A stretch of 52,878 nt of DNA from a virus. Its lineage: Duplodnaviria; Caudoviricetes. The stretch lies in IMG/VR virus record IMGVR_UViG_3300028550_003611, positions 1-52,878 of that record; one strand, given 5' to 3'. Under the pieces are notes generated by a model. That model was not told the origin of the DNA. It saw only the letters and a program-made list of their open reading frames with translations, and did not search any database. Of the stretch, positions 7,656 through 45,600 are shown one piece after another. Position 1 is the first letter of the stretch. Each line of letters opens with the position of its first letter. Position numbers and translations under genes: made by a program.

Positions 7656-8790
7656 TATATTCTGCGGCTGTGTGTGCTTCTTTATTCCAATTTGTGATTA
7701 ATTCTTCTCTCATTTCTTTCCATTCTTCATCAGTTTTTGCAGCATAGGTTGAACTATGATATATACTACCGTTTACTCCAGACAAACTAGAGTGTACGAA
7801 GTACTGCTTACATCTAATAGCTCCGTCTTGATCATCAGGAACAGCTCCGATGTGCATAGGGTCGATAAAGACATTGTGTATCTCACCACTGTACCAAGCG
7901 ATATACTTAAGACCACCAACGTGTAAACCTTTTACACAAGAAGCCTCATCGTTAGTATTTACTTGAGACCAAGAGTCAAGGTAATGACTACATCCGACAC
8001 GAATAAAGTGACCTAGTTCAGTACCATTAACACCTTCACAGTGAAATGCATCACCTCTATCTCCCATCATAGCTGGTTCAAAGAGTCTTTCTTCTACAGT
8101 ATCAGGTATTCCATCAGAATCAATCTCCCCTGTGTTAGGGTTAAACGTACGCTTGTAACGGTCTACTTGTTCACCTGTTTCTGTATCGTATGCATGCATA
8201 ACTTCTGAGGATACTTTGTAACCGTTAAGTAAACCTTCTTGCGTAATCTTCATCTGGTACATAGTTGCTCTACGTTCAGCAACTTCTTCAGATAACCCAT
8301 GCTCTTCCATAAGCTCTGTTTTTAACTTAGGGTGCACATACTTCATGTTAACGAAGTTAAAGAACCGATTAGAAAAATCAGTTCCTTTCTTCTCCATAAG
8401 AACAGGGTTACGCAACCAACGTGTCCACATCTTAATAAGAGGTGAATAATCTGCTCCTGCATCAATAGATTCATAAATTCTATCTACTAACGCTAAAGGC
8501 ATCGGAACTACAGAAACTTTATCTCCTTGTTTAAGGAAAAATTCTTTAGTTACAGGGTTAATATAGATAAGACCATTGGCCCCGTCTTCAATAACTTTAG
8601 TGTAGTCTACTTGCACTAGATCGTGGCAAGCAGATAAACAGTTATTGTACTCCTCTACAGTTTCCACGCTATTAGCTGTTTCAGCTAATGTTGTTAGTTT
8701 ACCGTAAAGATCAATGTCCATAGGTACAGAGAATGGTGTATCCCCATATGAACCGACGATGTTATCGTCTATAATACTTACATGTATCAT
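7639..8790 (-). CDS. rIIB: RIIB-like protein
   Basis: ITQEGLLNGYKV and SCVKGLHVGG motifs; lies directly downstream of an rIIA-like gene. Confidence 0.75.
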   Translation of the reverse strand: MIHVSIIDDNIVGSYGDTPFSVPMDIDLYGKLTTLAETANSVETVEEYNNCLSACHDLVQVDYTKVIEDGANGLIYINPVTKEFFLKQGDKVSVVPMPLALVDRIYESIDAGADYSPLIKMWTRWLRNPVLMEKKGTDFSNRFFNFVNMKYVHPKLKTELMEEHGLSEEVAERRATMYQMKITQEGLLNGYKVSSEVMHAYDTETGEQVDRYKRTFNPNTGEIDSDGIPDTVEERLFEPAMMGDRGDAFHCEGVNGTELGHFIRVGCSHYLDSWSQVNTNDEASCVKGLHVGGLKYIAWYSGEIHNVFIDPMHIGAVPDDQDGAIRCKQYFVHSSLSGVNGSIYHSSTYAAKTDEEWKEMREELITNWNKEAHTAAEYIAIDV

Positions 8791-8793
8791 TGG

Positions 8794-11553
8794 TTATGAA
8801 TTTATAATTGTGGGTAGCTCAATAGCCAGCTTCCCTTTGGCTTTTAAATAAATAGTTAATTCTCTTGTAAAATCTGAATTGTTTGATTGATAGAAGTTCA
8901 TATCACTTAAGAATATATCTACTTCATCCACAATCTCATCACGTATTGCTGCGTACTCTGCAACAGTTTCATCAAAGATTTCAGCTCCTGGTATATCTGC
9001 TAAGATAAACAATTCCGCTGATTTAGAGGCAATTAGGGCTTCAGAGTTATCATCATTCTGCACTGACGTACAGTATTCTTGAAACTTTTTTAACCTATTA
9101 GTTTGCTCTCTGAATTCAGTAAATACATCCTTAAGCTCTAAACTTCGAATGTACGTGTTTTCTCCTTTCTTGTATGCTTCTTCTAAAAATTGTGCTAGAT
9201 CTTCAAATCTAGGATCAACTTCTTTTAGTTTCCACACCCAATCAGGAGTCTTTCCTGCTATTCTGGAATTCATCCAATTTATTACTTCTTTACTCATAGT
9301 ATATTTACCTTCATTTGTTAGTTGTAGAAAGAAATCTTTTATTGGGTAACAATTAGGATTCTTCTGAACATACTTGATCTTATTCTCTGCAACTCTTAAT
9401 AGCTGAGGCGTAGTTATAAAAGACAAATCTTCTTGAAAACCTTTAGTTAGATTTGTTCCAGAATAATGTCTACCTAATATTGCAGGTACTTCATCGTAGT
9501 AATACACAGCATTGTCATTAGATCCTCGTGTATCCCCATAACCATCGTAACTACAATTTTGATATACTTCTCGTATTTTAGGAGCTTGGTTCCGCATAAT
9601 TTCTGCAGCTAACTTCATCCATAACTCATCTTCACGAGTACAATAGTAAGTCACACGATCACTAGTCATTACAGTCTTTAGCTTAGGCTCAACTTTATCC
9701 CACGTAAATGTAGAAACTGTTGCATCATCACTTTGACACCAACTACCGTTATTCCTAAGAGAGAAAGCAACTATACGCTTTTCAATCATACGTATTTCAG
9801 CAGCAGATAAACCTTCAGTAGCCTGTAACTCAGATACTTCTATCTCTCTATCTTTAAACTCTTCAAGCCATTCATCGTCTGGCTCTACAATTGAGTAGTC
9901 TTTAAATAGTTTTGAATCTTTAAGTAGCGGAGTTAACAAGTCTTGATTTGTCTGCATCTTAGCTAGCTGAAGCATATCTGTATCGTTAGACGCAGCTTTT
10001 AACGTAAGAGTATCTAGACTCTTAGGAGTAATAAGCGTAAAAGATCTTTTTCCATAATCAGATGAATTACCAATAATAAAATGATCTTTTAAGTTATTTC
10101 TACTGTCACCTTCTTCTCTAAAGTATACTTTATCAAAATCAATATCTGACCAGCTTTCTGTAGAATTAGTTTCAATAGACAGCTTACCTCCTTTAACAAG
10201 AGCAGTAACTTTACTAATATTAAAAGCTTTAAACAATCCTTTAGGTCCTGCATACTGTAAAGTAGTATCCGAGAACTTAGGTTTCATGTTATTAGTATCA
10301 ATGATCTTAGAAATCTGACGCAGTGCTGAATTATCTGCATTCATAGAATCAGTCAATACATCTCTGCATGCTTTAATCCATTCTAAGAAATCAGTACTTT
10401 GTAGTTGATCTTGCACTAAGTCAACAGCTTCTTCAGCAGCTTTAAGAATAAGGTCTTGAACAAACTTCTTAGTGTGCTCATTCCATATAACTTTCTCACG
10501 AGAAGGAGTAACTTCTACACCCTCCTGAAGAACTATCTCTTTACCTGTCTCGTCTTTTAAGACTTGACGCATAGGACACTTAAGACCTACAGAACCCCAC
10601 AGTTGTTCCATCTCTAGCTCTCTAAAGTCTACATACCCATAGTTAATGCCCGTGGTTGCACCAGGAGCTTTAACGATTACGATATGGGGCCTAGAATACA
10701 TATAGCTGTCTGCTACAAGCAGAGAGTTAGAGTTGTGTATAACTTCAGATAGGAAATTCCTAGGAGATTCATATCCATCTTCATTGATAACTTTAAGCTT
10801 AACGTTGCTTAAATACATAAGCTGCTCTTCAACAGCTTCTTCAAACCTGTTACGGTTATGCTTTTTTACACCAAATGATATTTCTGTGTAGTTAAGCTCG
10901 TCTGTATTATGATAGTGAACTTTAGTACCATCAGAGAATGTAATAAACGGATTAAATGCAGGCACATTAAACTTAGTAGTATACGGATAGCAGCTTAATT
11001 GAAACTTCTTGCCGTTATGCACAGTAGTAATGTTGTAGAAATCTACACCTGTAGATAAAGCTACCTTAGCACCTAAACCAAACGCACCGAAGTTCTCAGA
11101 AGTATTACGCTTAGTTGAGTAACCTAACTCTAGGATACCTTCTAAACGCTTACCTCCAATACCTACGCCGTAATCTTTAACAGTAAACGTATCACAAAAT
11201 CCTATTCCTTCGTTTTGTTTATACGTAATTTGAACATGACAGTTTTCTTTATCTAAAGATTCTTGATTATAATAACTGGAATCAAAATTAGAATCAGCAT
11301 ATGCTTCTCCTTTTCTTTCTATATAGTACTGATCTATTCTTTTCTCTCCTTTTAATATCTCTAATGCCATCTCCTTCTCCCGTTGTGAATCGCAGGCGTT
11401 AGTCACCAGCTCACGTACAGTTGAAGGTATGGGCGTAGAATATTGTGTAGACTGTAAGATGTCAAACACCATCTTCTCAGCACCTTTATTGATTTTCTTA
11501 GCAACACCTCCTGTGTTTGTAACGATGTCGTTATCAATAGTTTTTATACTCAT
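8794..11553 (-). CDS. rIIA: RIIA-like protein with N-terminal GHKL (HSP90-type) ATPase
   Basis: YSTPIPSTVRELVTNACDS, DYGVGI, STKRNTSENFGAFGLGAK and VTPSRE motifs. Confidence 0.85.
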   Translation of the reverse strand: MSIKTIDNDIVTNTGGVAKKINKGAEKMVFDILQSTQYSTPIPSTVRELVTNACDSQREKEMALEILKGEKRIDQYYIERKGEAYADSNFDSSYYNQESLDKENCHVQITYKQNEGIGFCDTFTVKDYGVGIGGKRLEGILELGYSTKRNTSENFGAFGLGAKVALSTGVDFYNITTVHNGKKFQLSCYPYTTKFNVPAFNPFITFSDGTKVHYHNTDELNYTEISFGVKKHNRNRFEEAVEEQLMYLSNVKLKVINEDGYESPRNFLSEVIHNSNSLLVADSYMYSRPHIVIVKAPGATTGINYGYVDFRELEMEQLWGSVGLKCPMRQVLKDETGKEIVLQEGVEVTPSREKVIWNEHTKKFVQDLILKAAEEAVDLVQDQLQSTDFLEWIKACRDVLTDSMNADNSALRQISKIIDTNNMKPKFSDTTLQYAGPKGLFKAFNISKVTALVKGGKLSIETNSTESWSDIDFDKVYFREEGDSRNNLKDHFIIGNSSDYGKRSFTLITPKSLDTLTLKAASNDTDMLQLAKMQTNQDLLTPLLKDSKLFKDYSIVEPDDEWLEEFKDREIEVSELQATEGLSAAEIRMIEKRIVAFSLRNNGSWCQSDDATVSTFTWDKVEPKLKTVMTSDRVTYYCTREDELWMKLAAEIMRNQAPKIREVYQNCSYDGYGDTRGSNDNAVYYYDEVPAILGRHYSGTNLTKGFQEDLSFITTPQLLRVAENKIKYVQKNPNCYPIKDFFLQLTNEGKYTMSKEVINWMNSRIAGKTPDWVWKLKEVDPRFEDLAQFLEEAYKKGENTYIRSLELKDVFTEFREQTNRLKKFQEYCTSVQNDDNSEALIASKSAELFILADIPGAEIFDETVAEYAAIRDEIVDEVDIFLSDMNFYQSNNSDFTRELTIYLKAKGKLAIELPTIINS

Positions 11554-23711: not shown

Positions 23712-24095
23712 TTATTTCGGTCCGTGATAATATTCTTCATCACTCATCTGTCCCTCATCCCATTGACACCAACGATCATGCTCTTCAGCTTTTAGCTTAG
23801 CATAATAGTTGGCTTCTCCAAAATAAGCGTTGAACATTTCAACAACATCTGGAGACAGAAGACAACAGTTCTCGACATCAAAGTTATCATCGAGTCTATG
23901 CACTACCGATGCAAAGGTCTCGATAGTTGCCTCAAGGTCTGCCTTCACCTCTCCCTCGTACTCCTCACGTGCAGACTGCTCTTCATTGTAAGAGATTTTT
24001 TCTTTAAGAAGAGCGATATACTTATCACTAACCTCCTTAAGCATTGCCTTCACTTCCGAGAGTTCTTTCTCGAGTGAGTATGTGCGATAGCTCAT
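23712..24095 (-). CDS. Hypothetical acidic early protein
   Basis: ATGA-coupled ORF followed by a terminator. Confidence 0.7.
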   Translation of the reverse strand: MSYRTYSLEKELSEVKAMLKEVSDKYIALLKEKISYNEEQSAREEYEGEVKADLEATIETFASVVHRLDDNFDVENCCLLSPDVVEMFNAYFGEANYYAKLKAEEHDRWCQWDEGQMSDEEYYHGPK

Positions 24096-24292
24096 AATGA
24101 TAGTGAGTTAAACTCTCTAAGTAGTCTACCAGCACGAGTGTGTGACCCTCCTGTAGAGAACTTATGATTAGGAGCAAGCTTAGTGAGAAAGTCAAGAAAC
24201 TTACCTATCGTAATGAACCTGTAGTTACGAGCGACAGTTAAGAAGTCGTCACTAAACAGTTCAGCGTGTGTGAGGATGTGCTTGCGTCTCAT
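24092..24292 (-). CDS. Hypothetical protein
   Basis: ATGA overlaps at both ends. Confidence 0.6.
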   Translation of the reverse strand: MRRKHILTHAELFSDDFLTVARNYRFITIGKFLDFLTKLAPNHKFSTGGSHTRAGRLLREFNSLSL

Positions 24293-24510
24293 ACGTCGTG
24301 CTTTAGCATATGTTCCTCAGCCCCTTGCTCTAAATCTTCCCAGATTCGACGTTCAAGCTGATGCACTTTATCACGAAGCATATCGTTCTCAGTTCTAAGC
24401 TGTATGTATCCCTTGATGTAATCAACAAGGAAGATAGACATCACAAGCAGACCCACAACAACCGAAGTTGCTATGAGTACTGCGAGAGATGTGTGCAGTA
24501 AAGCACTCAT
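24289..24510 (-). CDS. Small membrane-anchored protein
   Basis: N-terminal hydrophobic helix followed by a coiled coil; TAATG coupling to the upstream gene. Confidence 0.65.
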   Translation of the reverse strand: MSALLHTSLAVLIATSVVVGLLVMSIFLVDYIKGYIQLRTENDMLRDKVHQLERRIWEDLEQGAEEHMLKHDV

Positions 24511-24902
24511 TAGAACGTCTGATTTACAGCGATACCTACACGCTGTCTACACGCTATAAGCGAGAAGTCAGGGTACTCAGCTGTTACACGACCTACGATG
24601 AGGTCATACGGAGGCATCACAGCGTCAGCTTGACCTGCCTCGACCCACTTATGTGCGAGAGGCACAGAGATGGTGAGCTCCTTGCCGTTGTGTATCACAG
24701 CCTGATTAGTCTGAGCCCACAAGACACGGATGTAGTCACCCTTGCCTACTGACCTAGTAGGTACATACTGAATAGTCCAAGCATTAGGACACACTCCAGA
24801 ATTAGGCTCGAAGGGTAAGCCTTGAGATAAACACGCTTGCTTTCGCATCTCAGCGAGTTTGACGGCCATAGGCTGACCGATGCCATTAGAAGAATTTTCC
24901 AT
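24510..24902 (-). CDS. Hypothetical protein, probably the first gene of the early arm
   Basis: ATG at 24902 (MENSSNG) preferred over the GTG at 25025; start uncertain. Confidence 0.55.
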   Translation of the reverse strand: MENSSNGIGQPMAVKLAEMRKQACLSQGLPFEPNSGVCPNAWTIQYVPTRSVGKGDYIRVLWAQTNQAVIHNGKELTISVPLAHKWVEAGQADAVMPPYDLIVGRVTAEYPDFSLIACRQRVGIAVNQTF

Positions 24903-25052
24903 AGTGATGGGAAATTTTGCTGTACGTACTAGATTAGCTTCAGTACAGCTGGTTTTTGGCCGTGGGGGTATCCCAAAGCTCGAGTGCTCGGTGGGGTCAT
25001 TGATTGAATTGGGTAACACTCTCACAAACCAAGAAAATTTTTCTAATTTTTT

Positions 25053-27338
25053 TTATGACGGCTTAATAGACATTACCGTCTGCCCTTTAGGAATTTTATT
25101 TTTTTCCTTTTCTAAAGCTTTTTCCTCTGATAATTTTTTATTGTGTGCTATTATATCATTACGATTATCCTTATATCTTTGTATTTGCTTTTTAGTCATC
25201 CCCTTTAAACCTAAAGACGATCTTAACTTTCTTACTGCAGGTCTCCCATACGGAAATTTCTTGACACCTTTCTGAGCTTTACGCCTAACACCTCCTCTTC
25301 GTAAATTATACTTACTAGAATTTTTTCTCCCCCCTAGTTTAAATTCTGGACCCCCAGAAGTAGGATCATTGTTTTCTTCACCTAAAACTGTGATTGCTGT
25401 TCCTGCAGCAGCACCTGTTATAACAGGAGAATACTTTAGAAGATTCATAAGAGAAATAGCTTTTTCTGTTTCTGAGCCCCCTTTAAGAATTTTAAATAAG
25501 TCTTCCCCTCCTTTAGCTTTCATAGCTTCTTTTAAAACTTCAATTCCATCGACTCCAGCTTCTGAGAGTTCTGAAAAATCCCCAATAGCAATTTTTGATT
25601 CATCCAAATGCGACATCCCTGAAAATCGTTTATATCCATTTATCTCGGTTGAAAGAAACTTTCTTACTTCTTGAGTTCGTGCTGTAATTTCTTCTGCAGT
25701 AGCATAATATTTATTCAGACTCTCATCAGGTTGATAATATCTATTACCTTTAGTAACAGGAGAATATGCATCATCTACAAAAAGAGAGAGTTTATCTTTA
25801 ACAACTTTACCTGCATCAGTCTTTAAAAAGTGAAAAGTATTTTTATGATTTAATTCATGAATTCCTGTTGATGTAATACCCTCTTTGTTATACGTTTCCA
25901 ACCAATGAGTCTTGTCTCCTTTATTTTTTCCCCAAAGATTTTGCACAAAGGTTTTAGTTTTACCTTTAGACAGAGGATAAGCAAGTTCATTTACAAAAGC
26001 TTTATCTTTAATAGCTCCCCAAGATGAATGATCTGGCAGATATACTCCCCCAGACTCTGATATATGTGAAGATTTGTGTGCATTATGCCCTTTCTCAAGC
26101 GTACTTTTAGCTCCTTTATCAAAAACTTTACCTATATCATTTCCTTCTGCCATTGATTTTTCTGCAGCAAAGGCATCTCTTACAGCATCATCCCCATACT
26201 TTGCTATTAAATCTTTCATAGGATCCATACTGTTTTTAGGATTCCATAAAGGATCACTCATTATTTCAATTTGCTTCTTATTTATTGTAGGATATAACTC
26301 CTCAAAATGTTTTCGTATTTTAGGATCTTTATAAAATCCTTGACTAAATTCATCTGCTTCTTTTAGTGCAGAATTAAATTCTTTTTTAAACGGTGATTCT
26401 AAAATCTGTCTGCCCTTTATTCTTGCTGAAGACATATTCTTTAAATGATTTTTAACTGGGGCAGATACACTTTTAAGTCCTCCTTTAATTGTTTCTTTAA
26501 CTGCTGATTGTCCTGGAATTACTATTCCTGGTAGTGCTCCTAGAGTATTAAATCCAGCTTCTAAATATTCTCCTCTACCTAAATTTCCTGCAACCCTACT
26601 CCCATAATCTACCCATGCAGCTGGGTTAACAACATCAAGAGCCATATCTTGAGGAGTTTTCCCAATACCTCCCCTTGCGTCATACTCCGCTGGAGTTAAA
26701 CTTAATCCTTCTGTTGCAGGATGACTAAGTGCTTTCCAAGATTTAATTGGGGAACCAGCCATTTCTAAAAATCCTACTTCTTTTGTTTCATCTTTATCCG
26801 GGGCTTGAGAAATTGTACCTTGATCATGAATTTTATCGTACAATTCTGTTTTTTTATCAATTTCTTTTTTAGTTTTTACAACTTGTGCAAAATTCGCTCC
26901 TCCATCCGTTGCATCTAATAAACTAGAAACACTAGGAACATTTACTTTAGTATTGTCTGATTTAGTAGTAGTGCCTGTTACTAAATTTTGACCTATTGGG
27001 GAACCATATTTGTCTAACCCATTCTGAGCTCTTATTCTAGAGTTCTTTTTCTTTGCGTATTCAGGACTTAACAGTATCCCTTGCTCAGCTTTCTTTCTAC
27101 TCCAAAACCTAAATGGTTTTCTCTTGCTCCCTTTTTTACGACTTTTTTCTTTTCTACTTTTATTAGTACTAGAGTTCTCACTTGTTGTACTCCCATCTGG
27201 TTGATGACTTACATCTTTATTGTCATTATTACCATACGTTCCGTTTGTATGATTAATCTTATTTAACTCCGTACGGTTACTTATTGCCTTTTTAGAAGAT
27301 TGAAAATCTAAATATTCTTGTCTGTAGTCTCTCCCCAT
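25053..27338 (-). CDS. Mosaic 761-aa protein: degenerate HNH-like N-terminus, zincin metallopeptidase motif, basic tail
   Basis: RDYRQEY...NKDVSH...ENSSTN; GIHELNH (25845-25859) followed by YY...EEITAR. Confidence 0.6.
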   Translation of the reverse strand: MGRDYRQEYLDFQSSKKAISNRTELNKINHTNGTYGNNDNKDVSHQPDGSTTSENSSTNKSRKEKSRKKGSKRKPFRFWSRKKAEQGILLSPEYAKKKNSRIRAQNGLDKYGSPIGQNLVTGTTTKSDNTKVNVPSVSSLLDATDGGANFAQVVKTKKEIDKKTELYDKIHDQGTISQAPDKDETKEVGFLEMAGSPIKSWKALSHPATEGLSLTPAEYDARGGIGKTPQDMALDVVNPAAWVDYGSRVAGNLGRGEYLEAGFNTLGALPGIVIPGQSAVKETIKGGLKSVSAPVKNHLKNMSSARIKGRQILESPFKKEFNSALKEADEFSQGFYKDPKIRKHFEELYPTINKKQIEIMSDPLWNPKNSMDPMKDLIAKYGDDAVRDAFAAEKSMAEGNDIGKVFDKGAKSTLEKGHNAHKSSHISESGGVYLPDHSSWGAIKDKAFVNELAYPLSKGKTKTFVQNLWGKNKGDKTHWLETYNKEGITSTGIHELNHKNTFHFLKTDAGKVVKDKLSLFVDDAYSPVTKGNRYYQPDESLNKYYATAEEITARTQEVRKFLSTEINGYKRFSGMSHLDESKIAIGDFSELSEAGVDGIEVLKEAMKAKGGEDLFKILKGGSETEKAISLMNLLKYSPVITGAAAGTAITVLGEENNDPTSGGPEFKLGGRKNSSKYNLRRGGVRRKAQKGVKKFPYGRPAVRKLRSSLGLKGMTKKQIQRYKDNRNDIIAHNKKLSEEKALEKEKNKIPKGQTVMSIKPS

Positions 27339-27339
27339 A

Positions 27340-28563
27340 TTAATATAGTACAGTTATTGTTCCGTTAAATTGAAACACACTTGCGTTCATAGAACTGTGT
27401 GCTGTTATAGTATAGACGTAAGTTCCTGTAGCAACGTCAGCATCCCACTCATCTATTGACGATGTACTTATCCATACAAGCCCACCCCATCTATTGTAGA
27501 TGCGAGTCTCCCATTGATCCCAACAAGCTCCGTCTGAAACAACCATCCAAGTATCATTCCATCCATCCCCATTAGGGGTTACAACATTTGGGGCAAAGAT
27601 TGAAGTCTCGTCACAAGGAAATGCTTCTGCACATTGTTCCCCCGTTTCACAATCTATATAAATAGATTCATATACAAAATCAGTTATAGTGTATGTATTA
27701 TAAACGTAGAGATACTCATATACAACCGTCTCTACATACATCGTGTCAGTTAAATAAATATATTCAAGCTCAACAAGAGTGTCTGTTTCTATCAACACAA
27801 TAGTATCGTATAGATACTCAATTATGTCTACATACTCAATTACTTGTACAGTGTCTGGGGGTAATTGAACATACTCTATCAATGTGTCCACTTCTGTAAT
27901 GTATAGAGTGTCTGTTGTTATCCACTCAACATCTATATAAATCGTATCAATAACATCTACATACACAGTATCACACGAAGGTGGGGCACAATATATAGCA
28001 GTGTTATTAGACAGGTCTACGTCAGGATAGTTCTGAGTTTGGTTAAACCCTGGATTCAACGCCCAACCTCCTTCAGCTATAAAAGCTGTGCGAGATAAAT
28101 TAATTTGCCACACAACTAACTCAGTACATAAAGTATCATTAGCTAATAGTTCTGCCCAACAATCGTTTGTACTTGCCCCTGTATCATAAACATTAGCACC
28201 CCAAGTATCACCATCGCTAAGAATCTGATTACCGTAAAGAGTAAAAACTTTAAACGTCCAACCTGGATGATTAACACCTGTTAGACAATCCATCCAATTA
28301 TAATCTAACCCTTCTACATGCAGCCCTAAAACAATATGAGATACTGTTGTGTTGTTAGTTACGTGTGGGCTAGAACTATTATCGCAAGTAGTTCCTACAC
28401 TAGTAAACTCGTTGCACCCACAGTTCTCACTGTTGATAGCCTCAACCACAATGTCACCCGTGGTAGCATCCCAACTATTAATAGCTACATCACATTGTGC
28501 GTTTACAGTTGTAGTAATAAAAATACTACATAAAATAAACAATACAAATTTTAATTGTTTCAT
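27340..28563 (-). CDS. Secreted protein with gliding-motility / T9SS type-B C-terminal sorting domain (CHU_C-like)
   Basis: Signal peptide ...TTVNA|Q; DT(V/I/L)Y-type acidic repeats; C-terminal IFAPNVVTPNGDGWNDTW...IYNRWG...W...GTYVY...GTITVLY. Confidence 0.85.
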   Translation of the reverse strand: MKQLKFVLFILCSIFITTTVNAQCDVAINSWDATTGDIVVEAINSENCGCNEFTSVGTTCDNSSSPHVTNNTTVSHIVLGLHVEGLDYNWMDCLTGVNHPGWTFKVFTLYGNQILSDGDTWGANVYDTGASTNDCWAELLANDTLCTELVVWQINLSRTAFIAEGGWALNPGFNQTQNYPDVDLSNNTAIYCAPPSCDTVYVDVIDTIYIDVEWITTDTLYITEVDTLIEYVQLPPDTVQVIEYVDIIEYLYDTIVLIETDTLVELEYIYLTDTMYVETVVYEYLYVYNTYTITDFVYESIYIDCETGEQCAEAFPCDETSIFAPNVVTPNGDGWNDTWMVVSDGACWDQWETRIYNRWGGLVWISTSSIDEWDADVATGTYVYTITAHSSMNASVFQFNGTITVLY

Positions 28564-29039
28564 GATTCTATAGTTGAAAAATCAATATATTTAATAGTAA
28601 CATCTTGCCCTTTTTCTAAAACAGCAGCAATTCGTGGGTATACATTAAAGTAAGCTTCAGTGCTGTTACCTATAAACCCATTAGTTTTAATACTGTTATT
28701 TACTTGCGAGTTGCCCAATAATAAACATCCCGCAGTGTCTTCATCAGTATTGCCACAATGTATAAGGATATACTTAAAATTAGGGACATCAAGTACATGA
28801 AGCATACCAAGATGTATATCAGCAAACCTCTTGGAATACTTAGTATGATGTCCTCCAACAATCCTAAGACCAAGACAGTACTCTCCTTCAGGTATACAAG
28901 TTTCTCCCCACACTTTTTCAGTGCGGCTTTCATCTTCGAGAGTATAGCATAAAAATTCACGTTTTCCATTGTTTATTTCAAATAACATTCCGTTAGTTGA
29001 GTCCGTTCCGTAGTTAAATCTTAATACTTCTAATTGCAT
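28560..29039 (-). CDS. DUF5675-family protein (L,D-transpeptidase-like; candidate endolysin)
   Basis: CYTLED, CIPEGEY and ILIHCGNTDEDTAGCLLLG (His...Cys) motifs. Confidence 0.8.
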   Translation of the reverse strand: MQLEVLRFNYGTDSTNGMLFEINNGKREFLCYTLEDESRTEKVWGETCIPEGEYCLGLRIVGGHHTKYSKRFADIHLGMLHVLDVPNFKYILIHCGNTDEDTAGCLLLGNSQVNNSIKTNGFIGNSTEAYFNVYPRIAAVLEKGQDVTIKYIDFSTIES

Positions 29040-29389
29040 GATCCGTAATTTGATAAAAAAGTTAATAAGTCGTTTACATCTACATCCCCATCTTCATTAA
29101 AGTCTCCAGCGCAAACTGGTTGAACACAGGAAGGATAGTTAGGGTGCTCTGTAAGCAAAGGATATACAAACCCATCCCCGTTTAAAACAAAAGCAGTTCC
29201 TATGTCTGCACAGTAAATTATAGTATATCCTCCCGCAGGTAATCCAAAGTAATGAGCTTCCCCATCGCAGTCTTGATACTGGAAATTTGTCCATTTTTCT
29301 GCCCCTACAGAAGTAAAGACATGCTGATTGCATTGGGCAATAGCAGTTAAGCTAAATATTAAAAATATTAAAGTAATTATATATTTCAT
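29030..29389 (-). CDS. Small secreted protein with C-terminal dockerin/EF-hand-like motif
   Basis: Signal peptide ...TAIA|Q; CAGDFNEDGDVDVNDLLTFLSNYG. Confidence 0.75.
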   Translation of the reverse strand: MKYIITLIFLIFSLTAIAQCNQHVFTSVGAEKWTNFQYQDCDGEAHYFGLPAGGYTIIYCADIGTAFVLNGDGFVYPLLTEHPNYPSCVQPVCAGDFNEDGDVDVNDLLTFLSNYGSCN

Positions 29390-29412
29390 TGTTTTTTGTT
29401 AAGTCTATGCAG

Positions 29413-29420
29413 TAAATATA
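29413..29420 (-). promoter_or_regulatory. Possible Bacteroidota-type -7 element variant for the minus-strand cassette
   Basis: TATATTTA (one mismatch to TAnnTTTG) about 24 nt upstream of the ATG at 29389. Confidence 0.4.
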
Positions 29421-29433
29421 CAACTTTTTAAGT

Positions 29434-29441
29434 TATCTTTG
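29434..29441 (+). promoter_or_regulatory. Bacteroidota sigma-A -7 element
   Basis: TATCTTTG matches TAnnTTTG; not followed by an ORF. Confidence 0.6.
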
Positions 29442-29444
29442 CGC

Positions 29445-29695
29445 CGAAACCGCTTCCTAGTGACCGGCCTCAGGTAATCAAAAAGAGGCCTAGACATCGG
29501 GTTACAGTAACTGTCAACATAGTCAGCGAACGTCGTCCCCGGTAGTTTCAAAATAAATGTTAATATAAAACTCAGGTGGGAACCAGGCTATAAGGTGTCG
29601 CCCCCACACAGGCTAAAAACGGTGAGTGGAAATTTAACACTAGACAAAAAAATTCGAAAAATCGAAGGGGCCTAATTGTATTTGGGCGACAAATT
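29445..29695 (+). ncRNA. Candidate structured non-coding RNA (~250 nt)
   Basis: ORF-free, GC-richer than its flanks, several complementary segments, directly downstream of a -7 promoter element. Confidence 0.45.
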
Positions 29696-29706
29696 TAAAA
29701 ATATTT

Positions 29707-29748
29707 TGTAACATAGCTTGTTACATAAGAGAAAGTTTTATATATTTG
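29707..29748 (+). promoter_or_regulatory. Late-operon promoter with overlapping palindromic operator
   Basis: TATATTTG at 29741-29748; TTG at 29718-29720; TGTAACA-N5-TGTTACA at 29707-29725. Confidence 0.65.
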
Positions 29749-29764
29749 TTGCAAACCAAACATT

Positions 29765-30052
29765 ATGCCAACAACAATAAACTTTCAGCCCACTAGAGAT
29801 TGGGTTGTGCTCCCAGTAAAGAATACTGAAAAAACAGAATCTGGAATTATTCTCCCAGAAAGTGTTCAAAAAACAATTAAAACTAACATTCTAACTGTAG
29901 TTGCTACAGGCCCTACTTGCGTAGACATCAAAGTTGGTCAAACAGTTATGGTCCATCCTACAACAGAAGGATTGATTATTGAGGTTGATGGAACCAGCTA
30001 TGTTATGGTCAATGAATTCATGATTTGTGGTATAATGCCAGAAAAAAAGTGA
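29765..30052 (+). CDS. groES: Co-chaperonin GroES
   Basis: PTRDWV, KTESGIILP mobile loop, VVATGP, IKVGQTV; 95 aa. Confidence 0.9.
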   Translation: MPTTINFQPTRDWVVLPVKNTEKTESGIILPESVQKTIKTNILTVVATGPTCVDIKVGQTVMVHPTTEGLIIEVDGTSYVMVNEFMICGIMPEKK

Positions 30053-30294
30053 AAGGAACTGTAACTATATCAATAAAAGATTACGACTCCCTTAGAGGGG
30101 CAGAAAGCTCTTCACTAAAAAAAGATGAGAGACTGATTAGAGCTGCAAAAGAGCTCGAAGTCTTTCTCTCATTTCTTGTTACAAGAGAAAATATTGCTGA
30201 ATATCTAGATGAATTTAACAGGCAATCTAAAGGAACAAAAATTAATCTTATTGAAGGCAGAGCTAAAATAATATTCGAAAATGAGGAAAATTAA
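30049..30294 (+). CDS. Hypothetical protein
   Basis: GTG start overlapping the groES stop. Confidence 0.6.
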   Translation: MKGTVTISIKDYDSLRGAESSSLKKDERLIRAAKELEVFLSFLVTRENIAEYLDEFNRQSKGTKINLIEGRAKIIFENEEN

Positions 30295-30595
30295 TATTAA
30301 AACAGACAGTACTCTTAAATACTTTCAAGTGTTTAATGGGATTTTAGAACTTACAGATAAAGAACTTAAAATTCTTTCTGAATTTGTAGATTTAAGCATT
30401 ACAATTAACTTATGTTCTGCTGAAAACAAAAAATTAGTGTCTAAAAAGTTAAATATAAAAGATCCTAATACTCTTAACAATTACGTTAAAAGACTTAAAG
30501 ATAAAGGCGCAATTAAAAAAACTAAAGATGGGTATGCTTTAGCTGGACTGTTAAAAAAAGAAGAATATGTTGTATTAGCAATACACAATGTCTAA
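30281..30595 (+). CDS. Winged-HTH-like DNA-binding protein
   Basis: LTDKELKIL...NTLNNYVKRLKDKGAI pattern. Confidence 0.6.
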   Translation: MRKINIKTDSTLKYFQVFNGILELTDKELKILSEFVDLSITINLCSAENKKLVSKKLNIKDPNTLNNYVKRLKDKGAIKKTKDGYALAGLLKKEEYVVLAIHNV

Positions 30596-30728
30596 AATTA
30601 CATTAATAGAGGACCATTTTATAATGGATCCCTGGTCTTTGTTAGTATTATACTCACATAAAGGAGAAGCAATACAAATAGTAATTTATCATACAAAAAC
30701 TGAAGATGGAGAAGTTATCAATTTATAA
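30588..30728 (+). CDS. Small hypothetical protein (46 aa; not in the ORF track)
   Basis: Manual translation MSKITLIEDHF...GEVINL bridges the gap between neighbours. Confidence 0.45.
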   Translation: MSKITLIEDHFIMDPWSLLVLYSHKGEAIQIVIYHTKTEDGEVINL

Positions 30729-30966
30729 AATGGTTAAATCTTTTGCAAAAGAGGTAAAAGAATTTGCTAAAGAAGGAGCCCCGCATGTAAGTGCAACAGA
30801 ATATAAAGAACGTTTAGATGCTTGCAAAGGATGTCCTAATTTTAAAATAGATATTGAACGATGCGGGCTGTGCGGTTGTTTAGTAGAACACAAAGCTAAA
30901 TGGGGCACTACTGATTGCCCAGATGATCCATCAAGATGGAAACCAATTATTAAAAAAGAGATTTAA
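30706..30966 (+). CDS. Cys-rich metal-binding protein (DUF6171-like)
   Basis: RLDACKGCP...CGLCGC...CP...W. Confidence 0.65.
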   Translation: MEKLSIYKMVKSFAKEVKEFAKEGAPHVSATEYKERLDACKGCPNFKIDIERCGLCGCLVEHKAKWGTTDCPDDPSRWKPIIKKEI

Positions 30967-30967
30967 G

Positions 30968-31186
30968 ATGGATAAACGAATAATTATTCAAAAATTAGCA
31001 ACTAAATACTCTTTATCGTTTAAAAAAGTAGAAGATATTGTGTATTACCAGTTTAAATACGTTTCTAAAGTATTTAAAGACAAAAAATTTGAATCTGTTA
31101 GACTGCCTTACTTAGGTAAATTTCATGTTGTACCTGGTAGATTAGAATATTTACAAAAAAATGAAAGATCTAATAACAGTAAGTAA
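30968..31186 (+). CDS. HU/IHF-like DNA-binding protein
   Basis: IIQKLA...VRLPYLGKFHV; lies upstream of the terminase as in crAss-like phages. Confidence 0.7.
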   Translation: MDKRIIIQKLATKYSLSFKKVEDIVYYQFKYVSKVFKDKKFESVRLPYLGKFHVVPGRLEYLQKNERSNNSK

Positions 31187-31655
31187 AAACGTAGTTATAC
31201 CTTCTGCGTATGCTTTAGCTATTCCAGAGTTTGAGTCTCTCTCTACCCCAGAGTTAGGAGCCGTATATTTTTATGCAGATCATGACTCTCCTTATGCAGT
31301 ATATGACAAAGGAGAAAGATTAAAAAAAATAGAAAAAGACTTAAAAATTAAATACACCCCAAAATTACGTAAAGCAATAGATAAATACAATAATTTGTGT
31401 GAAACGTCTGCTATTAAGCTGTTAAAAGCTGCAAGAACGTCTATTCAGAAATTAGAAAAATATTTTGAAACTATTAATTTAGATATATTAGATGATAACG
31501 GTAAACCTATCTATTCCGCAAAAGATCTTATTGCTAATCTATCTAATATGGGTAAAGTTGTTAATGGGCTAGAAGAACTAGAAGAATTAGTAAAAAGACA
31601 ACAACAAAAACAAACAAATAGGGGAGGAGTAGTAACTAATAAGTACTCTCAATGA
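31161..31655 (+). CDS. Protein upstream of TerL (candidate small terminase)
   Basis: Position and ATGA overlap with TerL; function inferred. Confidence 0.5.
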   Translation: MKDLITVSKNVVIPSAYALAIPEFESLSTPELGAVYFYADHDSPYAVYDKGERLKKIEKDLKIKYTPKLRKAIDKYNNLCETSAIKLLKAARTSIQKLEKYFETINLDILDDNGKPIYSAKDLIANLSNMGKVVNGLEELEELVKRQQQKQTNRGGVVTNKYSQ

Positions 31656-33607
31656 AATTTGTTGATTCTACACAGTACTCTCCGGCTGCAAACCATTACA
31701 TAAAGACAGGGTATTACACAGATATACATCCAGGCACTAAAGAATACTTTGATCATTGGGATCAGGAAGCTAACAGATGTTTATATGGCTATTTAGGAAT
31801 GTCTGGCTATCATTATTTTTATTTAAACTATTGCCCTATTGACAGGGCTGTAGACGAGATACTACCAGACGGAACAGTGCAGGCTAGAAGAGATAGAACA
31901 TTTCCTGCATTTTATGACGGAGATTTTAAATATTACAACTGTATAGATCGAGCGCGTAAGGAAAACAAACACATGGTTGTATTAAAAGCTCGTAGAAAAG
32001 GTTTTTCGTACAAAGCAGCAGCAATGTTAGCACGAAATTACTTCCATGTTAGGAATAGTAAGAACTATGTTTTTGCCGCAAGTAAAGAGTATTTGATTGG
32101 GGACGGGTTATTATCGAAAGCTTGGGAGTTCTTAAGCTTTATTGATGACAATACTGCGTGGACACAGCCCAGGCTACGAGATAGAGAGATGTCTAAGATG
32201 TCTGGATATAAGAAAAATGTTAACGGGGCAGACGTTGAACTTGGTATGAAGTCCCAAATAATGGGTGTATCTCTTAAAGATAGTCCAGATAAAGTTCGTG
32301 GTAAAGCTGGAGAGCTTATATTCTTTGAGGAAGCAGGATCTTTTGGGGGACTTTTAAAAGCGTGGGAAGTAGCTATGCCTACCATGAGGCAAGGTAGCAA
32401 AACTCTTGGGACTATGGTTGCTTTTGGGACAGGGGGTACTGAGGGATCAGACTTTGATGGAATGGAAGAACTTTTTTATCACCCAGACTCATATGATTGT
32501 TTGTCTTTTGAAAACGTATGGGATTCAGGGTCAATGGGAACAACCTGTGGGTACTTTGTCCCTATTCAAGAAAACTTAGATGGGTTTATAGATGATAATG
32601 GTAACTCTATTGAAGGAGAAGCTAAGATATTTATAGATAAACAACGAGAGAAGAAAAAAGGAGCTAACGATCCAAAAGCTTTAGATCAATATGTAGCAGA
32701 GCATCCGTTTTCTCCGCAAGAAGCAACACTTCAGGTTACAGCTAATCTATTTGACATTAACTCCCTTAAAGAACAATACAATAAGATTCGAGCGCATGGC
32801 TTAGAGTCTGAAGGAACTTCTGGGGAAGTGTACTATGACAAAGATAGCAAGATTGTATTTCGTCCGGGCGGAAAATCTGTGCCAGTATATAAATTCCCTC
32901 ACAGAAAAGGAGACAAAACAGAAGGTGCTATAGTTGTATACGAGCATCCTTATAAAACTGAAGGAGGAGAAGTGCCGCATAATTTGTATATTGTCTGCCA
33001 TGATCCGTATGCTCAGGAAAAGTCTACAACAAATGAATCTCTTGGAGCGGCTTATGTGATTAAACGAGTAAATAATCTTTCTAAACCTGATGACATAATT
33101 GTAGCTAGTTATGTAGGAAGACCAAATACACAAGATGAGTACAACAAAAATTTATTTATGCTGGCTGAACTCTACAATGCCAAAATTGGATTCGAGAACG
33201 ACCGTGGAGAGCTTATTGCTTACGCAAAAAGATTTAGGAAGTTATATAAGTTACAAGAAGAGTTTGAAATGTTGGATAAGAGAGAACTCAGATCCAAAAA
33301 TGTAAGACGTCAATATGGTATGCATATGACTGAGCAAAGAAAACGACAAGGAGAGCTTTATATTAGAGATTGGTTGCTTACCCCAAGAAGTGCATCAGAA
33401 GATGGAACCGTTAAATTAAATTTGCATACAATTTATGACCCAGCATTGTTATTAGAGTTAATTAAATTTAATCAAAAGGGTAACTTTGACCGAGTTATGG
33501 CGTTTATGGTAGGTATGTATCATACGCGAGAGTTATATAATAGAGAAGTAGTTGAAATTTTAGATGATCGCTCTGGGGATACCTGGTTCGACAGTATTTA
33601 TAAGTAA
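31652..33607 (+). CDS. terL: Terminase large subunit
   Basis: HYFYLNY, LKARRKGFSY (Walker A), FEEAG (Walker B), nuclease HDPY and GNFDRV. Confidence 0.95.
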   Translation: MKFVDSTQYSPAANHYIKTGYYTDIHPGTKEYFDHWDQEANRCLYGYLGMSGYHYFYLNYCPIDRAVDEILPDGTVQARRDRTFPAFYDGDFKYYNCIDRARKENKHMVVLKARRKGFSYKAAAMLARNYFHVRNSKNYVFAASKEYLIGDGLLSKAWEFLSFIDDNTAWTQPRLRDREMSKMSGYKKNVNGADVELGMKSQIMGVSLKDSPDKVRGKAGELIFFEEAGSFGGLLKAWEVAMPTMRQGSKTLGTMVAFGTGGTEGSDFDGMEELFYHPDSYDCLSFENVWDSGSMGTTCGYFVPIQENLDGFIDDNGNSIEGEAKIFIDKQREKKKGANDPKALDQYVAEHPFSPQEATLQVTANLFDINSLKEQYNKIRAHGLESEGTSGEVYYDKDSKIVFRPGGKSVPVYKFPHRKGDKTEGAIVVYEHPYKTEGGEVPHNLYIVCHDPYAQEKSTTNESLGAAYVIKRVNNLSKPDDIIVASYVGRPNTQDEYNKNLFMLAELYNAKIGFENDRGELIAYAKRFRKLYKLQEEFEMLDKRELRSKNVRRQYGMHMTEQRKRQGELYIRDWLLTPRSASEDGTVKLNLHTIYDPALLLELIKFNQKGNFDRVMAFMVGMYHTRELYNREVVEILDDRSGDTWFDSIYK

Positions 33608-42226: not shown

Positions 42227-42688
42227 ATGGGATTAAAAAATTTACAGGGAGATACTAGATTAAAAGTAACAGCTTCAAACCTAGCACCAAACTCACGTTA
42301 CACTATAGAGGTAACAAATTTAACTAAAGGAAATACAGCTATAATTAAGAAGCCTAGTCGTGGCGGAAAGTTAACAACTGTTTTGTCTGCAGATACTCGT
42401 GGGGTAAGTAAAGTAATTATTAAAAACAGCAAAGGGGCTGTAATAAAATCCTATGTAACTGTAGGTACAGCAGAAATAGAATGTTGTATAGCTAAACTAG
42501 TAACGGACTCAATTAATTGCACATGCAAGTGTGATAAGTGCATAGAAGATTTACAACGTGCACAAACAATACGTTTATTACTACAAGCTGCTCAATACGA
42601 AGCATCGTTAGGATTAGAGATTACTACTCAAGAAAAATATACTAAAGCTAAACAGCTGTGCACAGAAGTGTGCGCATGTGGATGTTAA
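42227..42688 (+). CDS. Cys-rich structural protein (tail ring-like)
   Basis: ECCIAK, CTCKCDKC and terminal CTEVCACGC. Confidence 0.55.
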   Translation: MGLKNLQGDTRLKVTASNLAPNSRYTIEVTNLTKGNTAIIKKPSRGGKLTTVLSADTRGVSKVIIKNSKGAVIKSYVTVGTAEIECCIAKLVTDSINCTCKCDKCIEDLQRAQTIRLLLQAAQYEASLGLEITTQEKYTKAKQLCTEVCACGC

Positions 42689-42689
42689 C

Positions 42690-45600
42690 ATGGGACAAAG
42701 TTTAGACACTACACGCACAAGAGTTGCGTATGTAATACAAGAATTGGTAAGTGAGTCTACTGTAGCAGGTATACAAGAAACTTTATCAGATAATACCCAC
42801 ACAGTTGTAGCTGTATACGCTCCTTCTCAATCTTTTCCTGCATCTTTAGGCACAAGATATGATCCACTTTTGTCAGCGCACGTAAGCAACGTTACAACAA
42901 AAAATACTACTGACAATACTACACAGTATAATGGCAATGTTGAGGATATGCAAATCTCTACTGAATACCGTGATGTAGCGTCTGGAAACACTATAGAAAA
43001 TAGAAAAATTTCTATTTTTATTCCTCTCTCTTTTTTTAACGCAAACAACTCTTCAAGTCCTTTGCTACAGGGAGTGCAAGTGGCGCTTAAATTTGCTACT
43101 AGAACTTATAATGTTCATTTAATTATTAAACCTTTATTAAATGCAAGTGGATCTACAATTGAAGGTAGAATTAAACTTGATCAAACTATTTTATTTAAAA
43201 ATTATAATACTTTAAATGTACCTGTTATATGTTTAAAGGGAGATGAAACTGCTATAGCTGCTTATAACTCAGTTAAACAAGGAGAATTTTCAGCAAGTAC
43301 TTCTTCAGTTAAACTTTTACAAAAAACGGTTAATACTCAAGGAGAAGAAGAACATTTAGTAACTAAAAATATTCCATACGCGTTTCCTCATTGGTTCTCT
43401 ACTTTTGATTCTTCTGATATTATAGCAAGTGTAGGTGGACAAAATTATTTATCTGCTGGAACATTTGGAGGCACTAATTTATATGTGTCCCCAATATCTT
43501 GGATTTTTCCATGGGAAAACCCTAGCTATCATCCTAATAGCGGTATTTTTGGAACTACTAATATTAACAATTCTTCTATTGAAGCTGGTGCAGAAAATTT
43601 AATTCAATTAGATGAATTTTTTAAGATGCATGAAACTGGGTCTGAAAATTGTTGGGGGGAAAAATATGGAACTTTTAGTTCTTATACTCCAAACTCTACA
43701 AATGCAGATCTTTTACACTACCCTGCAATCTGGGGGCCAAGTCTAATCGGACTTATAGGATTTGATAATTATAATACACTTCCTTCAAACCCTATCTCAG
43801 TTTTTAATCTGTTTACAGATGGTGATTCTCAGTTTGTTATTCCGATTTTACAAACTTTGTATGTAGACGAAATAAACAGTATTTTAATAGATAGACCCAA
43901 TAATATGTTTGGGGAAATTTTAAATAATCTTGAAACTTCTCAAATTATTCAATTTGCAAGTAAAATAACAAACTCTGGATTTATTGGTGCATACACAAAT
44001 GGGAATGAAAGTGCATTAAAAGGAAATGTTCCTTTACTTAATAGAGCACATTCTTTCTTTATGCCAAGAGCGGGATATAACTCTTACCAGTCCGGGGGAT
44101 ACATAACTACATGTAGATTTTTTATAGGCACTGACATTAGCGTTGCTAATCTTAAAAGTCTTTCAAAAAGCAGTAAATTTTTAGAGTTTGCAATTAACTC
44201 TGCTAATTTTCCAGAATTGCACCCTGGAAACTATATTCAACAAGAACCTGTTGCTAGCAACGATAACTTTGGTAGAAGCATGGAGTGTAGCAGACTTGCT
44301 ACAAAATTGTTTTATAATATTCAAACTCCTTTAGAATTAGAATCTAGTAATTCATCAAATATTAGTAATATATATGGAGCGTACAACACAAGATACACAG
44401 GAGAAACTGCTAATACTGCCTTAAACACAGATGTATTAGATGCTTTCCAAGCAAAAGCATTTTCAAATTTATCTACAACTTTTAATGACGCTTTAGGAAG
44501 CAACATGCCAGCAGGTTATGGGGCTTTACCTACTAAGTCTATATCTTTTCAAGATGTAGTTGTTTTACACAATGTTGTAGGTTTTGGAAATGACTCTACA
44601 GTTACCCCGAATAGCACTTATGCTAACAATAGTAGCTATACTTTTCCTACAAATTCTTTTAACTTATTTCCTATACATAGTACTAATGAAGGAACATTTG
44701 TAGATGATGATCCTTCTAGCACTTTTAGAGGAGAAATATTCTCAGAACGTAATAGTCATTTAGTAAATATTTCCCCGTTTGGGACTCAATTATTTACAGG
44801 AAACAGCATATTTCTTCCTTTTTACTACGGCGCTAATGACGATTACGCAGATTTAATTACGCAGACAGGTAGAACAAATGTATTTACTAACAATGGTTAT
44901 TTTGATCAAGGAGGATATAAAAGAGCTCTTTTAGCGAATCCTAATCTCGAAGGTGAGGATCCTTGGAGCGGAACTAGTAACGGAGCTTTCTCAGGCACTG
45001 TTAGTGGATCAACATTTAAAATTAAACATGTTAGTGTAACAGTTTCTGATGTTGAAAATGGATTTTATAATACTCTAAATGCTGCAGGGCTAAAAGTTAA
45101 TTTTACGTTAGATTACACAAACACTAGCAGCTCAGGTAGTACTCAACTTTTAAATTGTAAAAATGATGCTGGAGGATATACAGCTTCTAATTTAACAGAA
45201 GTTTTACAAATATTTGATTCTATAAAATATAAGCCTGGAAGGCTCTCTGATGGGTCAGCTGACTGGGCTTATGAAATTGATATTCTAGATTCTTCAGATG
45301 TAGAAAGTGCTACTATAACAGAGCTAACTTCAGCAAACAGTTCATATACTAGTCTTCATTATAGACTTAATATAGTTTTCTTAAATGATATACTTGATCT
45401 AAATGAAAGCGGGGGTTCGGCTCCCCATACAAATATTATTCCTGATTTAGAATTAAAGTTGCCTCCACAAAATGCTAATCAAGGAGACGAATGGGGAACT
45501 AGACGATATGAAGGGTTTTATGGCTCGCAAGGATACAATAATGTTCCTACAGATATAAACCAATTCTCACGATTTGTTACTTCAGAAATTACATTTAAAC

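Follow-up and report, generated by a model that had tools for sequence, protein, structure and literature searches.

A phage gene family predicted to encode type B cargo for the host type IX secretion system

Introduction

Type B substrates of T9SS, the type IX secretion system, are the adhesins on which Bacteroidota move or with which they stick to surfaces. SprB of Flavobacterium johnsoniae is a giant repetitive adhesin of this kind, and the gene for its shuttle lies adjacent to its own. As described in the available portions of PMC12618676, type B C-terminal tails carry five conserved motifs (A-E), cognate PorP/SprF-type shuttles collect these tails from the SprA translocon, and the tail decides whether a substrate rides on the gliding machinery or is held in a stationary position. 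In the same portions, a single orphan shuttle serves three orphan substrates of F. johnsoniae, some crosstalk is described, and an ipTM of >0.8 is given for cognate pairs. Excerpts of two further reports describe type B proteins that are anchored at the cell surface by PorP-like barrels (PMC9143113), and mutations in gliding and T9SS genes that give Flavobacterium resistance to phage (PMC9804748). Here we describe a gene at positions 27340..28563 (minus strand) of the IMG/VR virus record IMGVR_UViG_3300028550_003611 that is predicted to encode a type B substrate of this system within a phage genome; its product is referred to as the cargo, and the whole stretch of DNA that was analysed, 52,878 nucleotides in length, as the window.

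Phage-borne T9SS cargo is already in print, in 2019 and in 2020, from computation only. T9SS-tail genes have been noted upstream of the head module in the cluster 2 crAss-like phages of the gut (PMC6949934, in part), and the accessible text on the 'Cryophage' genomes describes hypervariable genes in which type A tails are joined to enzymes (endoglucanase, GH39, PA14 protein) (PMC7468147). The original prediction for the present locus, which was made by a model from the letters of the window, stated that no experimentally described phage T9SS substrate was known. With respect to experiments this statement holds in the literature that we covered, which left most subscription journals and supplements out of scope and yielded neither an experiment on a phage T9SS substrate nor a paper on a type B substrate of a phage; it has to be qualified by the two computational notes cited above.

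Results

Sequence features of the cargo

The original prediction had described a protein that begins with a Sec signal ending in A/Q (the slash marks the cleavage site), continues with a Cys-containing N-terminal domain and an acidic DT-repeat stalk of ~120 aa, and closes with a type B C-terminal domain at ~27343-27600. Each of these elements was recovered in the present analysis, and their positions in the open reading frame (ORF) are as follows.

27340..28563, minus strand: predicted phage-encoded type B T9SS cargo, an ORF of 407 aa plus stop
28498..28563, minus strand: Sec signal peptide, residues 1-22, with a predicted signal peptidase I (SPase I) site VNA/Q, from hydropathy and charge
27979..28497, minus strand: Cys-rich head, residues 23-195, a beta-sandwich with long loops in the AlphaFold2 model
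27604..27978, minus strand: acidic DTxY-repeat stalk, residues 196-320, from composition
27343..27603, minus strand: type B T9SS C-terminal sorting domain (CHU_C / TIGR04131-like), residues 321-407, from hidden Markov model (HMM) matches

The leader was called from sequence features and from its conservation within the family. Its 22 residues contain two lysines and a hydrophobic core and end in the cleavage context VNA/Q, and the 11-residue Kyte-Doolittle maximum within the first 30 residues is 3.2, as compared to 1.49 in the remainder of the cargo. Of 120 relatives, 114 have a hydrophobic leader immediately ahead of the conserved Q(T)C start, and the six exceptions are accounted for by late gene calls (three), by QR in place of QC (one) and by an extra domain that follows a normal leader (two). 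Positions 1 and 2 of the mature head are Gln and Cys, respectively, and are invariant in 30 of 30 aligned heads. Seven cysteines are located within residues 23-195, and one more is found at residue 197. The stalk spans 125 aa that include 29 Asp and Glu residues, no Lys or Arg and eight [DE]T[VILM]x motifs; its DNA contains one short tandem repeat (27928-27973), and in 30 relatives the stalk is between 81 and 265 aa long. At the C-terminus, the Pfam model CHU_C (PF13585) matches residues 324-392 of 407 with a score of 56.5 bits (cut-off 27), and a six-frame search places the same domain at 27388-27594 with 57.8 bits. Models of type A T9SS tails were not reported on the cargo at E<=0.1 in NCBIfam. 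The aligned phage tails share invariant columns.

In the AlphaFold2 model of the whole cargo, the predicted local distance difference test (pLDDT) score is 85-90 over the tail, moderate over the head and <30 over the stalk; when the head is modeled alone, it reaches a pLDDT of 74.6 and a predicted TM-score (pTM) of 0.75. The tail shows a weak fold likeness to solved T9SS tails (8glk_D, TMt 0.73, root-mean-square deviation 2.6, E 0.048). No match at E<=0.001 was returned by a structure search with the whole-cargo model or by a Foldseek search of the PDB with the head model, the ESM Atlas search with the head gave no usable named match, and PDB sequence searches with the tail and with the product of a neighboring DUF5675 gene gave no meaningful match. 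As far as its sequence is concerned, the cargo resembles a type B T9SS substrate in every part that was examined.

Origin of the window and integrity of the locus

The window is a fragment of a marine crAss-like phage and not host DNA. PHROG profiles detect a terminase, a portal, a major head protein, a holin, a DNA polymerase, helicases, a primase and rIIA/rIIB, with E-values for the terminase, portal and capsid in the range from 1e-88 to 1e-125. Matches to the capsid protein come from 139 deposited phage records, and in 84 of these they span >=80% of the capsid length. The best-ranked matches are to crAss-like phages of Bacteroides and of gut metagenomes (28-29% identity over 97-99% of the length), and Flavobacterium phages contribute 29 of the 139 records. 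The crAss tail-ring family CrAss_Ring_3_4 scores 25.1 in the window, just under its cut-off of 27, and the record as a whole is an IMG/VR virus contig with an estimated completeness of 62%. The crAss-like capsid, together with the Gln at position +1 that marks a Q-rule leader, implies that the host belongs to the phylum Bacteroidota, in which the T9SS occurs. A Gln directly after the leader is the Q-rule of the Bacteroidota, as set out in the available text of PMC5837995 and PMC10653852, and in that of PMC10367356 it served as a mark of host adaptation in Porphyromonas phages.

The suggestion that the cargo is phage-encoded had been accompanied by the caution that the locus might prove to be mis-assembled host DNA, and the recurrence of the locus speaks against the latter. 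The order of an exported small gene, the DUF5675 gene (both described below), the cargo gene and the next gene is repeated in viral contigs L028 and L029, which come from other samples. A 9-kb region is present in 20 DNA runs of 8 studies, with at least half of its words found in 10 runs, and the junctions at 28560 and 29030 are bridged by contigs of two other studies with <=2 differences. When one genome per species was scanned with the head pattern, a single locus was found among 185,579 species, and it lies in a metagenome bin, on a contig of 61.6 kb that is collinear with viral contigs L007 and L008. The DNA of positions 25000-30000 gave no match to deposited phage genomes. No RNA runs over 24000-33000 were listed among the runs that contain the region, and scans for promoters and terminators gave results at chance level (22 promoter-like sites versus 24.5 expected; for the Bacteroidota consensus, 2 matches versus 2.0 expected).

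Elsewhere in the window, rIIA- and rIIB-like genes are located at 7639-11553 (minus strand; PHROG E-values of 4e-24 and 3e-8) of this crAss-like phage. PHROG and Pfam gave no match to two giant ORFs, at 15-6059 (plus strand, 2014 aa) and 42678-48986 (plus strand, 2102 aa); crAss-like phages commonly encode proteins this large. Searches of the window found no tRNA genes and no Rfam families. In another phage lineage, three tRNA genes are positioned directly upstream of the cargo gene (L047:1660-1931).

Distribution, selection and exchange of modules

Among 2465 candidates, 426 are relatives of the cargo at E<=0.001, which puts its domain make-up far beyond chance. The best 120 of these 426 are 59-99% identical over 95-100% of the query, and PF13585 is present in all of them; in the Joint Genome Institute (JGI) annotation, relatives carry the name 'gliding motility-associated-like protein'. 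Viral contigs yielded 76 cargo-family loci. One group of carriers is the crAss-like lineage of the window (L026, L028, L029 and L044). A second group is formed by phages of 58-68 kb, four of which are 94-100% complete and one of which has terminal repeats, and the terminase of these phages, where it lies inside the locus, is only ~21% identical to that of the window. The family also occurs on contigs that are rated by CheckV as 4-34% of much larger genomes. On the sequences collected, the family is wide in marine and crAss-like phages and is carried by at least two kinds of phage.

Among 50,697 deposited phage genomes, one record matches the full cargo, via the tail alone, and a head-only profile finds 72 clusters among 1.84 billion representatives. 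CHU_C is located at the end of 20 of the 22 longer head-family members that were scanned, which describes a small family that is almost always coupled to CHU_C in its sequences. The head domain is conserved down to 40% identity, with invariant cysteines and motifs. The head model has a BFVD match (E 1e-12, 36% identity) to a 406-aa protein of 'Virus NIOZ-UU157' that was automatically named gliding motility-associated C-terminal domain-containing protein; in the literature on this virus, no paper was found that discusses the head-family gene.

The ratio of nonsynonymous to synonymous substitutions (dN/dS), calculated from 14 sequences, is 0.083 for the head, 0.13 for the stalk, 0.071 for the tail and 0.78 for the leader, values that are rough because a dS of 1.3-1.5 is close to saturation. 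The leader value is typical of a leader, and the remaining values indicate strong purifying selection on the head, the stalk and the tail. The heads of L016 and P0113 are 86-87% identical to that of the window and their tails only 40%, while L041 has a head that is 33% identical and a tail that is 82% identical. On the head tree, the tail class needs 6 changes (minimum 2). The tail tree resolves into four well-supported clades, on which the head class needs 4 changes (minimum 2), and supported branches force at least three. These trees indicate that the head and tail have recombined repeatedly and have separate histories. Repeated exchange of tails is the pattern to be expected if a phage has to match its tail to the shuttles that its host provides.

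An exported partner and the surrounding genes

A second exported protein, hereafter the partner, is encoded beside the cargo, and in the window the two genes are separated by a DUF5675 gene.

29030..29389, minus strand: partner, a 119-aa exported protein with a leader ending in IA/Q, a Cys-rich globule of ~74 aa and a dockerin-like repeat, from the ORF
29033-29113, minus strand: single C-terminal dockerin-like Ca-loop/helix repeat of the partner, from a profile match
28560..29039, minus strand: DUF5675 / phrog_1501 gene, from Pfam (92.6 bits) and PHROG

In the window, export leaders on convincing ORFs are confined to the cargo and the partner, as two further leader hits are frames that overlap the primase and helicase genes. 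As in the cargo, the leader of the partner ends before Gln-Cys. An alignment of 26 partner sequences contains six invariant cysteines, with 61-88% identity in 23 of 25 relatives, and dN/dS is 0.066 in the globule and 0.22 in the last 27 residues. A profile of the partner family matches the solved dockerin 2y3n_B via this last segment (E 1.4e-4); Pfam Dockerin_1 was not reported on the partner, which has one repeat only, at E<=0.1. The Atlas cluster of the partner has 706 members, and every member with a taxon record is viral. Deposited phage genomes gave no match to the partner.

Both genes are called in 44 of the 76 loci. In 39 of these they adjoin or overlap, with the small gene on the upstream side of the cargo gene in 32 loci and on its downstream side in 7. 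L042 is counted as having them apart only through an over-extended call of the cargo ORF. The DUF5675 gene lies between them in L028, L029 and the window, and in L007 and L008 this place is taken by a gene for a PARCEL-repeat surface protein. The remaining 32 loci comprise 20 with the cargo only, 7 in which neither ORF is called and 5 in which the small gene stands alone at a contig end.

In some loci the partner slot is occupied by secreted M43 metallopeptidases (L039:4695-6011, L040 at the same coordinates, and L064:3674-5680; Peptidase_M43, 47-49 bits). The enzymes of L039/L040 and L064 match the small-protein profile in dockerin-like repeats, those of L039/L040 also at the leader, and their hints of a T9SS tail are sub-threshold only. 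Single chains of 950-970 aa that fuse an M43 peptidase to the head, DTxY stalk and CHU_C are encoded at L065:1035-3887, L066:89-2971 and L068:2070-4976, on contigs that are rated as 10-14% of much larger viral genomes. No phage hallmark genes were seen in the flanks of L065, so a cellular origin of this contig is possible.

The PARCEL-repeat genes that separate the small gene from the cargo gene belong to one phage lineage and are located at L007:3461-5950, at the same coordinates in L008 and at L078:6658-7947, and the L078 copy scores 140.7 bits with TIGR02167. The DUF5675 gene belongs to the cassette in the window lineage only, most other lineages having it ~3 kb upstream of the pair, and probably plays no part in the mechanism considered below. 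In L009 (phrog_3000/33083) and L042 (phrog_894 with Peptidase_M15_3), the gene directly upstream of the pair codes for an endolysin.

Between the 119-aa gene and a GroES-like gene is a divergent intergenic region that contains an ORF-free, GC-rich stretch of ~250 nt (29420-29680). L026, L028, L029 and L044 have sequences 74-79% identical to it over ~380 nt at the corresponding position, and long runs are invariant. RNAalifold applied to 5 sequences of the region predicts 74 pairs, 7 of them with compensatory changes, in a structure that corresponds to no Rfam family. Marine crAss-like phages may have a structured RNA here, or a regulatory region.

Discussion

A probable phage-made protein at the host surface

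These analyses uphold the gene as phage-borne, intact and conserved, and extend the earlier interpretation by the partner gene, the swapping of tails and the fact that a phage shuttle went undetected. We consider it likely that the product of the gene is a surface protein made by the phage and exported along a route that the host provides. Following established T9SS biology, the cargo would cross the inner membrane of the infected cell by Sec, and its N-terminal Gln would probably be cyclised. The tail would then be recognised at the SprA translocon and passed to a host PorP/SprF-type shuttle, and this shuttle would hold the cargo on the cell surface with the head at the end of the stalk. The tail would set the choice of shuttle and hence whether the cargo rides on the gliding track or keeps a fixed position. 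The working part would be the head, probably together with the adjacent 119-aa exported, dockerin-tailed protein. Our best guess is that the head may change what the infected cell binds or exposes, either via adhesion or by masking the phage's own receptor.

Several observations weigh against this reading. The inference of the host reaches phylum level only. On the window cargo, the NCBIfam model of the type B sorting domain, TIGR04131, narrowly misses its cut-off (32.5 bits, cut-off 35), so the proposed search with TIGR04131 and CHU_C was borne out by the latter model and fell short with the former. Among five relatives, four reach the TIGR04131 cut-off of 35 (L016, 40.0; L046, 41.3; L064, 37.4; L065, 35.0; L061, 27.1). 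The modeled fold of the head gives no clue to function, as its best solved-structure match is FN3/Ig-like with a Z of only 6.4, which is within the usual background (VIA-align). In 14 of the cargo-only loci there are >450 nt on both sides of the gene and yet no small partner, which indicates that the partner is not obligatory. Partner distances correlate weakly with those of the head (rho 0.27) and the tail (rho 0.34) in Mantel comparisons, and because the two values are about equal, no specific co-evolution of the partner is seen. Finally, PorP_SprF gave no match in the window, in its 28 Pfam-scanned ORFs or in any of 5 related records (0/5; four of them 94-100% complete), each of which has exactly one CHU_C gene, a negative result that is weak because the search control matched in no genome.

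Alternative readings

Surface display could be refined into a two-part arrangement in which the cargo head, or possibly the stalk, binds the dockerin-like tail of the neighboring protein, making a split adhesin or an enzyme carrier. We put this forward tentatively, as a possibility that falls well short of the probable. It is suggested by the small gene, which in 39 of 76 loci borders on or overlaps the cargo gene, in lineages with terminases of only ~21% identity, and by the dockerin-like repeat of its product (profile E 1.4e-4). It is also consistent with the secreted M43 peptidases with dockerin-like repeats that fill the partner slot of L039/L040 and L064, and with the chains of L065/L066/L068, in which the fusion of M43 peptidase, head, stalk and tail provides a gene-fusion link between passenger and anchor. 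Against such an arrangement, a sorting tail is absent from the 119-aa protein itself and, to our knowledge, co-export of a bound partner by the T9SS is not established. No cohesin is present among the 50 fold matches listed for the head, and the lack of specific co-variation and the 14 loci without a partner argue in the same direction. A more ambitious version, which we regard as speculative and rather improbable, would be a two-piece surface organelle composed of a swappable-tail anchor whose head takes a dockerin-tailed passenger, either the 119-aa protein or an M43 protease, through the T9SS.

It is also conceivable, but in our view unlikely, that the phage tail acts by jamming or displacement. 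It would compete for the host PorP/SprF shuttle or the translocon and thereby remove a host type B adhesin, possibly the receptor, with superinfection exclusion or gliding arrest as possible outcomes; this would not be exclusive of display. Type B tails pair specifically with shuttles, some of which are shared, in the portions of PMC12618676 cited above, and Flavobacterium can become phage-resistant via gliding/T9SS mutations in those of PMC9804748. In addition, the search above detected no shuttle gene in the phages, and tail modules are exchanged between phages as if host-matched. Jamming would, however, require the tail alone, yet the head and stalk are constrained like the tail, and the head retains its invariant cysteines and motifs down to 40% identity. 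Display is favored over jamming because of this constraint on the head and stalk and because the phages retain the gene for another exported protein beside that of the cargo; a mere block of secretion is less likely.

A role of the two exported proteins as lysis accessories, helping to breach the outer membrane or the wall late in infection, is very improbable. The endolysin genes just upstream of the pair in L009 and L042, and the DUF5675 gene that lies between the pair in the window, would be in keeping with such a role. Module junctions beside lysis genes are, however, usual sites for accessory genes. Neither protein matches an enzyme family, neither has a spanin architecture (a membrane anchor or lipobox), the holin of the window is 22 kb away (51457-51894), and for such a task a T9SS tail would be needless. 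The least credible readings are those of a virion decoration or fibre protein with Ig-like domains, which has in its favor the beta-sandwich fold of both folded domains, a fold shared by many phage decoration proteins, but in which a conserved cleavable leader would export the protein from the cytoplasm, the site of virion assembly, and of host DNA that was carried or wrongly assembled into a phage contig, for which the JGI name of the relatives speaks and against which stand the gene order shared with L028/L029, the bridged junctions, the 20 runs of 8 studies and the single, viral-collinear locus in 185,579 species.

Significance

If the surface-display reading is correct, the family would be an instance, common among marine and crAss-like phages, in which a virus places its own protein outside the infected cell, and the possible consequences include superinfection exclusion, particle attachment and changes in the fate of infected cells. 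How tails choose their shuttles is described as an open question of the field in the available text of PMC12618676, and a family in which near-identical heads are found on four tail clades constitutes a natural experiment. Should the two-piece organelle be real, ocean phages would routinely re-dress infected Bacteroidota in an adhesin or enzyme encoded by the phage, and the T9SS would be able to carry a partner that lacks a tail. The gene, the partner and the tail variants are small enough for a direct test in F. johnsoniae.

Comparison with known systems

The T5 Llp and lambda Lom/Bor genes are phage accessory genes that alter the host envelope. As predicted for the cargo, their products are phage-encoded proteins that are exported to the host envelope during infection, with genes at a module junction, whereas the route and architecture differ and there is no sequence relation. 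The partner resembles the dockerins of cellulosomal cohesin-dockerin pairs (2y3n_B) in that it ends in a dockerin-like Ca-loop/helix repeat and in that some partner slots hold a repeat-bearing enzyme. Unlike those dockerins, it has one repeat instead of two, and no cohesin fold is recognised in the head.

Among phage genes, those noted in the gut crAss-like cluster 2 occupy a similar position, upstream of the head module as in the window (PMC6949934, in part). The Cryophage genes differ from the present family, which combines a type B tail with a conserved head and a partner gene and is widely distributed in the sea. Among cellular systems, SprB-SprF of F. johnsoniae and PG1035-PorP-PorE of Porphyromonas gingivalis share with the cargo the type B tail and, in the portions of PMC9143113 available, are characterised by anchorage through a PorP-like barrel. 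Unlike SprB, the cargo has 407 aa with one head and a low-complexity acidic stalk, and no adjacent shuttle or PorE gene was detected; only the tail class is shared.

The closest counterparts are the F. johnsoniae orphans Fjoh_1123, Fjoh_1720 as well as Fjoh_4934, which are served by the shuttle Fjoh_1677 (PMC12618676). Like the cargo, beside whose gene no shuttle gene was detected, they combine a Sec leader and a type B tail with no adjacent shuttle gene, and the accessible part of that report describes them as putative adhesins in which the tail decides both the shuttle and the destination. The cargo differs from these orphans in being phage-encoded, in its length of 407 aa, in having a head that is found almost only on viral contigs and in its dockerin-tailed neighbor. 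Being phage-encoded, the cargo would need a shuttle from another genome.

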